A DNA stretch of 43,972 nucleotides, taken from NCBI GenBank assembly GCA_030167865.1, contig JALAGF010005524.1, positions 1 to 43,972 on the forward strand. The letters run 5' to 3'. The notes below the pieces were generated by a model that searched no databases, was not told the DNA's origin, and saw nothing but the letters and a program-made list of their open reading frames with translations. Shown piece by piece: positions 16,616-19,267 of this stretch. Made by a program: the position numbers and the translations under genes. The DNA is from Craspedostauros australis (Eukaryota). The number at the start of each line of letters is the position of its first letter. Position 1 is the first letter of the stretch.

Positions 16616-19267
16616 CTACTGGATGACGATCTCCTTGGTGGAGGTCTCGGCGAACAAACTGATATCGACAGGCGGTCGGAGCTTGCAGCATTCTGTGACG
16701 GCTTGGTGGACGGTGTGCTTCTCGAAGTCGGCGATCAGGGTCTCGTCGACTGGGGCGCCGTTGTCGACGGCGGTGTAGGCGAGCTGGTCGAGGATGTAGT
16801 CGAATCGTGGGGCCCACTTTCTGGAACCGGTCTTGGCTGTGAAGGAGCAGTTGTCGACCATGAAGGCGACGCCCTTGTAGTGCATGTACGGGCAGAGGGA
16901 GTCGACGGCCTCGATGACGGACTCGTTCACGACCTCGGAGTATGGGTGTCCGGCCTCCAGCAGGACATCGATCTGGGCCATCATGGTGGCGATGTAGACA
17001 CCGGCGGTGAATGGGTTCAGCGGGATGTTCTCATCATCACGTTCGCTGCGAACCTTCTCACCGACCTTCCATGTGTCGGTTCCGTCGATCTTGCCGACTG
17101 GGTACTTGTCGATACGGGCACCGTGCATGATCACGGTTCGGATCTCGTTACCGGAGGAGACCTCGTCGTAGATCTCCTGCAGGATCTCCTTGGCTGGCTT
17201 GTACGAGGCGGAGTAGGCGACCTGGAACTGCTTCTTGTCCTCCTCGCTCTCGAGCTTCTCGTAGACGGCCTTGATGCCCTGGGTGGAGATGATCTTGACG
17301 ATGTTTCCGGTGATGCTCTCGGAGGACTGCACGAAGGCCTCCTCGGGGCTCATGCCCTGGCGCTGGTAGCGGCGGTAGAGGGACTCGACGATTCCGTGGA
17401 CGGCTCCGAGGAGGATTCCGCGCTCACCGTAGATGTCGGAGCAGTACTCGGACTTGAGGCTGGTCTCGAACATGAACGGGGAGCCGACGGCGATACCCCA
17501 TCCGAGGGCGAGGTCGGTGGCCTTTCCGCTGACGTCCTGGTGGACGGCGAAGGAGGAGTTGATTCCGGCTCCGTTGACCTCCTTGCCCTGCTCGTACAGA
17601 CGGCGGACGGATGGTCCCATTCCCTTGGGGCAGACGGCGATGACGTCCATGTCCTCTGGGAACTTGTCACCGATGGACTCGAGGTGTCCGAGGAGGAATC
17701 CGTGGCTGAGTCCGAGGGTGGCACCTGGCTTCATGGCAGCGAAGATCTCCTTGTACAGCTTGGCCTGGGCGGCGTCGGAGATGAGGAGCATGACGAGGTC
17801 GGACTGCTTGATGACCTCGAACATCTCTCCGAGGGTGCCATCCTCCTCGCTGAAGCCGCATTCCTTGGCCTCGGCGTAGGAAGCGGATCCCTCACGGAGA
17901 CCGATGGTGACGGTGGCGGGGGCTCCGACCTCCTTGAGGGAGTCGCGGAGGTTCTGTCCCTGGGCTGGTGCCTGCGAACCCCATCCGATGACTCCGATCT
18001 TCTCGATGCCCTCGAATGCCTTTGGGAGGAGTGAGAAGAGATCACGTCCTCCCTTAAGGATGGTCTCCTTGGTTCCGGCGAACTCGACCTCCTGTGGCTC
18101 GAAGATCTTGGAAGAGAATCTGCGACAATAGGTGCGGGAATGCATTTTGGATTGATGGTGGTGACACATTCCGGAATTGATGAATGCGATGCCATGAATC
18201 ATGATGCATGAGTGGATATGATCACCACATTCACCATCACATGCGTACATGCATTCATGAGCACGGATGAACGATGGAGTGGGAAATTTGGCATTTGATA
18301 ATGAGAGGGGAAATAGTGTGAGATTGAAGCATTGAAATAGTTCGTTGATTGTTGCCTGGTTGGATTCATGCCCAGGACATTGAACAGATCTGCGATTGCG
18401 ATTGCTGCTGCTGCGGAGGTAGAGAATGGGCGTTGCGTGGGGCATTGGAAAGGCATTGCTTGCTAGCATCATACTCAGACAGTGCAAAGTATTGATTCCG
18501 GTTTTGCAGCTATTCTTCATGATCTCAGAAGAGGGGGCGTGTTTGTCATCATAGTATGTGCTGTTGTCGTTGTCGCAACTGTCGCTCTTTCTCTTTTGGG
18601 AGAATGGGAAGATGGAGTGACCGCCAATGGAATGGATGAATGGATGGTATGTGGTGGAATCGGTGGATTGAGCTCGCCAATGGCATTTTCTTCCATCGTC
18701 GGATCATCCATCATGGTCAGATCAACTGGCACAAGTGGTTGCTCCAATGGCCGCACCAATCCACCAAAGTCGGCAACTGGGGTGGCAGAATTCATCTGCG
18801 TCTCCCAGAGTTCCGAATTCGCACCTGCCGCCAGCTTGCGTGTGTTTGTGTGTGATTGTTCCGATTGTGCTGTTGTGCCTGTGGACCAGAGTCCAAGTTC
18901 TTTGTCGACAAACTGAATTCTTCTGTGTTGATATCCTCAGCACATTCCATCCCATTTGTTGCCGTCCATTCCAATGCATCTCATTCATCTCATCTCCCAA
19001 TTGCGTACATCCAACCCATCACCTCTCCACACCTCCAGAAAGGGCAGCACTGCACGCATCGCAGAGTCCAGCATATGGCAGATTCCGCGTTCCACGTTGC
19101 ACCTCAGCAACCAAAAAGCAAAGGCCGGAAGATTGATTGATGAAAAGCACTTACCCGTTCAAGGCGGACTGGCTCTGCTGGACGACAGCGTTCTTGGCAT
19201 TGAATGCTGGAGCAAAGGCGGTGGCAGAAGCCACCATAAGGGCGGAGACAGCGGCAGTGAACTTCAT
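16616..19267 (-). CDS. ilvC: Plastid ketol-acid reductoisomerase (plant-type long form); exons 19267-19155 and 18119-16616
   Basis: [72 protein letters not shown]. Exon 1 [20 protein letters not shown]... joins in phase 2 (GG|gtaag...cag|A). Confidence 0.96.
18470..18558 (-). ncRNA. Intronic box C/D snoRNA candidate (89 nt) in the ilvC intron
   Basis: Sense-strand sequence CATAC-T-ATGATGA(C)-CAAACACGCCCCCTCTT-CTGA(D')-GATC-ATGAAGA(C')-...ATACTTTGCACTGT-CTGA(D)-GTATG. All four boxes are in the correct order and the 5-bp terminal stem CATAC/GTATG is perfect. Confidence 0.75.

Follow-up and report, generated by a model that had tools for sequence, protein, structure and literature searches.

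The window, that is the whole 43,972-nucleotide (nt) stretch of contig JALAGF010005524.1 from the diatom Craspedostauros australis, carries a box C/D small nucleolar RNA (snoRNA) unit in the first intron of ilvC, the gene of ketol-acid reductoisomerase (KARI). The unit measures 89 nt from stem to stem (18470-18558) and lies on the minus strand, in sense orientation to the host gene. It was assigned, with a probability of about 0.78, to the ancient SNORD100 (HBII-429)/plant snoR30 box C/D family, of which it would be a diatom member. Its D' guide appears to be the SNORD100/snoR30 guide for a conserved G of 18S ribosomal RNA (rRNA), and an accessory element typical of the family is complementary to the adjacent 18S bases. 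An earlier note on this DNA had described the snoRNA as an orphan; judged by these sequence matches, that status is not kept for the main guide.

Architecture and family of the snoRNA

The elements of the unit were read directly from the minus strand, in the order 18558 to 18470, as CATAC-T-ATGATGA-CAAACACGCCCCCTCTT-CTGA-GATC-ATGAAGA-ATAGCTGCAAAACCGGAATCAATACTTTGCACTGT-CTGA-GTATG. The 5' stem CATAC (18554-18558) is followed by the C box ATGATGA (18546-18552), by the 17-nt D' guide CAAACACGCCCCCTCTT (18529-18545), which makes up the spacer from the C box to D', and by the D' box CTGA (18525-18528). The C' box ATGAAGA (18514-18520) lies 4 nt past D' and departs from UGAUGA at one position. The second spacer, from C' to the D box (ATAGCTGCAAAACCGGAATCAATACTTTGCACTGT, 35 nt), leads to the D box CTGA (18475-18478) and the 3' stem GTATG (18470-18474). 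The description of the four boxes and the CATAC/GTATG stem on the sense strand in the earlier note was borne out in full by the sequence reading and the scans. The terminal stem of 5 base pairs (bp) is extendable to 9 bp by AGCA (18559-18562) and TGCT (18465-18468) with one bulged A, as indicated by the minimum-free-energy structure and direct reading, which gives an extended stem over 18465-18562. Such an extended external stem is typical where an intronic snoRNA lies far from the branch point. A C box, a D box, a terminal stem and an internal D'/C' pair at guide-length spacing, layout marks of the box C/D class, were all found, and by its sequence the motif looks like a genuine box C/D snoRNA.

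The frequency of this architecture by chance was estimated by shuffling. A C box and a D box with a stem of at least 4 bp gave four candidates in the window against a shuffle mean of 1.7, and when D' and C' boxes were also required, the unit at 18470-18558 was the sole remaining candidate. Among 300 shuffles of the window that kept its dinucleotides, 3 gave the full architecture at least once, and 1 did so with a 5-bp stem. The three other pairs of C and D boxes, located at 2980-3052 on the plus strand and at 4066-4177 and 41625-41695 on the minus strand, have stems of 4-5 bp without D' and C'. They are probably chance occurrences, and their number is close to the shuffle mean. The window also contains 202 N, an assembly gap.

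The family of the unit was sought with Rfam, which at gathering thresholds found nothing in the window. The relaxed search on the intron gave snoR30/Z108 (RF00046) as the best match, at 24.6 bits (E 0.01). The alignment spans the guide and the D' box (consensus GCUCCCUCUUCUGA, window GCCCCCUCUUCUGA) with the stretch GC[U/C]CCCUCUUCUGA. The guide core GCCCCCTCTT (18529-18538, minus strand) followed by CTGA is identical at nine of ten bases to the family form GCTCCCTCTT-CTGA; written as RNA it reads GCCCCCUCUU-CUGA and differs at a single base from the plant snoR30 and animal SNORD100 guide (clan CL00073). Arabidopsis SnoR30 is directed to 18S G392 and interacts with 25S U803 through its other guide (PMC8053127). 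The comparative table in PMC3511168 pairs AtsnoR30 (RF00046, CL00073, Gm390) with human HBII-429 (RF00609, CL00073, Gm436), lists SNORD100 under RF00609 with Gm436 and shows no yeast counterpart in these entries. The target of SNORD100 is given as 18S G436 in PMC12288042.

Predicted pairing with 18S ribosomal RNA

The predicted target site reads GAGAGGGAGCC, preceded by GGTTCGATTCCG, in all four eukaryotic 18S sequences that were fetched, and the fifth base of GAGAGGGAGCC is nt 392 in loci L050 and L042. The guide core pairs with the 18S stretch GAGAGGGAGC. Along the guide, a G.U pair and six Watson-Crick pairs are followed by the C/A mismatch of position 8, by two pairs, a second mismatch and two further pairs; the resulting string :||||||x||x|| was obtained for each of the four sequences. 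The fifth guide nucleotide upstream of D' falls on the G whose 2'-O-methylation is known from Arabidopsis (G392) and human (G436). With the GC-rich D' guide, a scan by energy only is unspecific. The 18S sequences were taken from eukaryotic contaminant contigs in prokaryote assemblies: a primer-site scan returned at least 57 loci, Rfam was applied to seven of them, and five (L015, L034, L038, L042 and L050) carry eukaryotic rRNA genes. These five hold complete or partial ribosomal DNA (rDNA) units (18S, 5.8S and 28S, in L034 also 5S) filed under bacterial metagenome-assembled genomes or isolates.

The second guide region revealed a further element, CCGGAAUC, of 8-10 nt, able to pair with 18S just 5' of the target. 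Its confirmed 8-nt form CCGGAATC, which with the two following bases AA occupies 18492-18501 on the minus strand, makes eight contiguous Watson-Crick pairs with 18S GATTCCGG, right beside the target, a length that was attained in 25 of 2000 shuffles. Jointly, guide and accessory element cover about 17 contiguous 18S nucleotides. Stramenopile 18S may differ at one flank position in such a way that the accessory helix of the window would lengthen to 10 pairs. The element resembles the extra base-pairing described by van Nues et al. 2011 (PMC3116282) as a conserved complementarity of 4-11 bp to rRNA that flanks the methylation site, is not adjacent to the D box, is often found in the second guide region of single-guide snoRNAs and sometimes shares one or two nucleotides with the guide duplex. 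The element in the window fits this description in size, in its second-guide-region position, in its flank complementarity and in an overlap of about 1 nt. In that work extra base-pairing stimulates methylation up to five-fold, and HBII-429 is among the human examples; the stimulation was shown in yeast for other snoRNAs.

The remaining 13 nt before the D box, the D-side region TACTTTGCACTGT (18479-18491, minus strand), contain a core, TTTGCACT, common to a second diatom locus, L062. The earlier note had proposed AATACTTTGCACTGT as a second guide. The 8-nt accessory element ends just 5' of that sequence, which shares two bases (AA) with the 3' end of the possible 10-nt accessory form; a matched target is lacking only for the 13 nt before the D box. 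A strict search over the at least 57 loci of the primer-site scan gave five matches, none a credible sense-strand rRNA site. In the scored search of 14 rRNA segments the best match, of 10 pairs with one G.U, fell in a variable region of the large-subunit (LSU) rRNA of L034, and a 7-nt match to the conserved LSU GTGCAAA site was also seen; both were unconvincing. No transfer RNA (tRNA) gene was found in the window as a candidate target.

Homologous loci and the KARI host gene

Homologues were collected by one metagenome scan for a C box, a gap and GCYCCCTCTTCTGA, which covers C box, guide and D' box. The scan returned 24 loci, 21 of them distinct, and an objective test was applied to these, a D-like box followed by a stem of at least 5 bp against the bases 5' of the C box. 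Nine of the 21 passed: L058, L059, L062, L064, L067, L069, L071, L073 and L076. The scan match in L065 lies in a plant snoRNA cluster and is snoR30 at 75.7 bits, the only metagenome homologue that reaches Rfam gathering. L063, L068 and L075 were weaker candidates. Relaxed Rfam on 11 homologue loci gave a sub-threshold SNORD100 or snoR30 match at the same spot in seven, with SNORD100 at 31-37 bits for L073, L076, L067, L058 and L071 and snoR30 for L064 and L062; no clan match at E <=1 was obtained for L059, L063, L068 and L069. At the equivalent C' place TGA[AG]GA was seen in L058, L062, L063, L064, L065 and L067. At guide position 8 the two diatom copies, those of the window and L062, have C, and the 11 other credible homologues have U. 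In a MAFFT alignment of the 14 homologues the part 3' of the D' box was unreliable, and a covariance model would be circular for the 5' half.

Among the remaining loci, L060/L077, L066, L072, L079, L080 and L081 seem to be coding sequence or chance matches. The GCCCCC guide variant is present in both L066 and L080, but these two read as coding, have no D box with stem and were dropped as homologues. L062 (at 4076-4079), L063 and L069 have CGGA or CCGA at the D-box position despite good terminal stems or C' boxes, which may be a tolerated change of the kink-turn U-U pair. L058 holds two tandem SNORD100-like copies on its minus strand, 3570-3658 and 4434-4520, about 780 nt apart; the latter has a degenerate D' box and keeps the guide core and the accessory element TTTCCGGAACC. 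The cluster in L065 (2788-5053) is of the plant polycistronic type, with 11 Rfam gathering-level matches on one strand: snoZ157 (twice), snoR80, snoR38, snoR20a, snoZ107_R87, snoR30, snoR77Y, snoZ112, snoU31b and SNORD14.

The accessory element is a feature outside the selection made by the scan pattern, and its recurrence was followed through the homologues. The 8-nt CCGGAATC is present in the window, L062 and L059, a 7-nt CCGGAAT in L063 and a 6-nt CCGGAA in L058 and L069, and elements of this type pair with 18S (GA)TTCCGG. In L064 and the plant locus L065 the element is the 10-nt GAATCGAACC, whose pairing partner GGTTCGATTC lies five bases more upstream. The element length was reached, among 2000 shuffles each, by 31 for L062, 40 for L059, 69 for L063, 362 for L058, 351 for L069, 3 for L064 and 1 for L065. 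Eight of the 21 distinct loci have CCGGAA or GAATCGAACC past the D' box; L080 among them is otherwise not snoRNA-like. The second L058 copy, which is independent of the scan pattern, carries the element as well. The L071 group pairs further upstream on 18S, and nothing comparable was found in L067, L068 and L075.

The comparison with the two named families gave both likenesses and differences. Plant snoR30/Z108 (RF00046, CL00073) shares with the unit the best Rfam match, nine of ten bases of the guide core followed by CUGA, the predicted target 18S G392 and, at L065, the accessory complementarity to the 18S 5' flank. In contrast to snoR30, the unit scores below gathering and has C, not U, at guide position 8, and pairing of the plant accessory element GAATCGAACC is shifted upstream by 5 nt. 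Plant snoR30 has the 25S U803 guide, whereas the D-side sequence in the window is unlike the snoR30 consensus there in the Rfam alignment, and it is a gene of a polycistronic cluster, whereas the snoRNA in the window stands alone in the intron of a protein-coding gene. Animal SNORD100/HBII-429 (RF00609, CL00073) agrees in clan, in its target 18S G436 and in being intronic, and is among the human snoRNAs with conserved extra base-pairing (PMC3116282). It is not the top-scoring family for the unit, and the short SNORD100-like sequences L071, L073 and L076 (69-73 nt) are without the CCGGAA element.

L062 is the closest homologue, with the same GCCCCCTCTT guide variant, the same CCGGAATC and an identical TTTGCACT before its D-like box CGGA. 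Its terminal stem has 7 pairs by the objective test and extends by eye to about 11 with one interruption. Its intron comes after a first exon of 104 nt (ATG at L062:3722) and is in phase 2, as in the window; the snoRNA starts 165 nt within this intron. The peptide of this exon, MKFSLALGAMMAASAAAFVPSSQFAVRQSTAMQM, resembles the N-termini of diatom KARI and gave a best local score of 88 against the first 70 residues of 120 KARI relatives, the best-scoring relative being P0113, which starts MKFSLASTALLFASASAFAPSAFVPKQSTAMSMAFSSEIF. Against exon 1 of the window the score was 62, which 0 of 2000 shuffles reached. From these sequences the location in the first KARI intron is probably conserved in a second diatom. 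No KARI was found by tblastn/tblastx in the 24 metagenome loci, and the other homologue loci are without KARI within 4 kb. Upstream of the KARI-like exon, L062:1165-3228 (plus strand) holds two open reading frame (ORF) pieces of radical-SAM RlmN/Cfr-type look with CxxxCxxC by eye; the local gene order would thus differ from that in the window.

The host gene is, by its sequence, that of a plastid-targeted KARI. Exon 1 (19155-19267, minus strand) encodes a signal plus transit presequence, with similar N-termini in diatom KARI proteins, and exon 2 (16616-18119, minus strand) encodes the mature enzyme with the Pfam domains KARI_N (8e-34) and KARI_C (2e-41). The first intron (18120-19154, minus strand, phase 2) is bounded by GT..AG. 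Its length of 1035 nt, as previously noted, was confirmed, and the exons join into an uninterrupted protein of 538 amino acids. The nearest named relatives of this protein are those of Nitzschia inconspicua (89% identity) and Fragilariopsis cylindrus (88%), followed by Epithemia, Nitzschia sp., Striatella and Attheya, which points to a diatom, probably a pennate one. The 5' splice site lies 596 nt before the start of the snoRNA, and 349 nt separate its end from the 3' splice site; as the snoRNA lies on the sense strand of the KARI intron, it is presumably co-transcribed with KARI. The proposal of a guide RNA co-expressed with branched-chain amino acid synthesis is supported for the intronic sense-strand snoRNA and its presumed co-transcription, and is not supported for the orphan part.

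The host of human SNORD100 is a translation-related gene. The KARI host had been presented as unusual for its metabolic role, a weak premise for algae, in which a metabolic snoRNA host is unremarkable. Of the 131 snoRNAs of Ostreococcus tauri, 72 are intronic, and their hosts include 33% ribosome-biogenesis and 18% RNA-processing genes (PMC7671301). The 3' part of the intron (18125-18284) appeared structured by mononucleotide shuffles (z about -3) and not by dinucleotide shuffles (z -0.03), and was rejected as a candidate. A match to mir-297 at 18195-18258 scored 20 bits against a gathering score of 90 and was treated as chance. The ORF upstream of KARI (19980-20864, minus strand) has a similar presequence, and its body is FabZ-like dehydratase by eye only.

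Alternative explanations and biological meaning

Several results weigh against the assignment to SNORD100/snoR30. The snoR30 score of 24.6 does not reach the family gathering score of 60; the Rfam check suggested in the earlier note led to a nearest family with a known 18S site, below gathering and with one mismatch to the canonical 18S. That mismatch is the C at guide position 8 against A in all four fetched 18S, which leaves seven pairs (one of them G.U), the C/A mismatch and two pairs. The duplex energy is -15.4 kcal/mol for the window and -18.1 kcal/mol for L062, compared to -19.0 to -26.7 kcal/mol for the 11 homologues with U, and the cost of the mismatch is about 4-5 kcal/mol relative to canonical 18S. 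The pairing was judged on 18S of organisms none of which is known to be a diatom. Either these diatoms carry G at that 18S position, or the accessory helix helps to tolerate the mismatch. The 18S site with A or G had 0 matches in viral contigs; a full-text literature search gave no paper with the G form, and all occurrences among the matches listed have A, a result that is uninformative on diatoms. The 5' halves of the homologues are alike by construction of the scan pattern, and only their 3' halves are independent evidence. L062 is the only diatom orthologue found; its contig ends 25 nt past the snoRNA and before exon 2, and its host was recognised by exon 1 only. The 18S function leaves the 13 nt before the D box unexplained, and by their sequence they may or may not be a second guide.

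The mismatch, which stands 3 nt from the target nucleotide and leaves only seven contiguous pairs, and the score below gathering would also suit a true orphan, in which the D' guide would be like that of snoR30/SNORD100 by coincidence or as a vestige, and no 18S methylation would take place in the host organism. This explanation is quite unlikely, as the 18S bases next to the predicted target are matched exactly by the accessory element, which recurs in independent homologues, the guide core is kept in L062, and the four boxes and the stem are intact. A chance combination of motifs, or a decaying copy in a long intron that is no longer processed, is very improbable. It would agree with the unremarkable folding energy of the region (z -1.5; 18 of 200 shuffles fold as well), but low self-structure is normal for C/D snoRNAs, the architecture arose in only 3 of 300 shuffles, and homologues with the same layout as well as a copy in a probably orthologous intron were found.

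A second, lineage-specific function, compatible with the 18S function, was considered less unlikely but still less probable than not; in it the D-side guide UACUUUGCACUGU would methylate or chaperone a target outside the conserved rRNA core, such as a diatom-specific rRNA segment, a small nuclear RNA (snRNA), a tRNA or a messenger RNA (mRNA). The window and L062 agree in all 8 nt of TTTGCACT beside the D box and differ in neighbouring spacers, the single difference just 5' of it (C in the window, U in L062) would keep a pair with G in a common target, and no convincing complement was found in the conserved rRNA cores of five fetched non-diatom eukaryotes. However, the distance of TTTGCACT to the D box is 2 nt in the window but 1 nt in L062, so that the fifth-nucleotide rule picks different bases, and the D box of L062 is CGGA, not CUGA. 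In the four other CCGGAA homologues 7-11 unconserved, A/U-rich nt lie between accessory element and D box, and the wider family is therefore without a second guide there. Eight nt common to two related sequences are possible by descent alone, and the accessory element of single-guide snoRNAs often occupies the second guide region (PMC3116282). A joint form of these ideas was considered improbable: pennate diatoms would keep a remodelled SNORD100/snoR30 in the first KARI intron, the guide C opposite the canonical A would track a lineage-specific 18S change or make a deliberately weak guide that needs the accessory helix and gives sub-stoichiometric Gm, and a diatom-specific D-side guide (core UUUGCACU) to a target outside the conserved rRNA core (expansion segment, snRNA, tRNA or mRNA) would have been gained. 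If this remodelling were true, the dosage of a ribosome-modifying RNA would be tied to the transcription of a branched-chain amino-acid gene.

For the SNORD100/snoR30 assignment itself, established intronic C/D snoRNA biology suggests how the RNA would be made and used. It would be transcribed within the KARI (ilvC) pre-mRNA; after splicing the intron lariat would be debranched, and exonucleases would trim it to the small nucleolar ribonucleoprotein (snoRNP) assembled on the C/D kink-turn and the terminal stem of 5-9 bp. In the nucleolus the D' guide and the accessory element of the snoRNP would pair with pre-18S, and fibrillarin at the C'/D' site would methylate the 2'-OH of the nucleotide equivalent to G392/G436.

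The accepted view of how C/D snoRNAs work is unchanged by this finding, and the apparently conserved location in the KARI intron and the shared C/A mismatch are small curiosities. No diatom snoRNA catalogue was found among the titles of the matches listed in the literature search, and annotated examples with target assignment are therefore useful for diatom genomes; in PMC4247016 one snoRNA is mentioned, as a reference for quantitative PCR. SNORD100/snoR30 is among the C/D modification targets common to plants and animals that PMC3511168 discusses with regard to the last eukaryotic common ancestor. The unit described here would add a stramenopile, diatom member to this family, and the accessory rRNA-pairing element of the family would then be conserved far outside animals and yeast.

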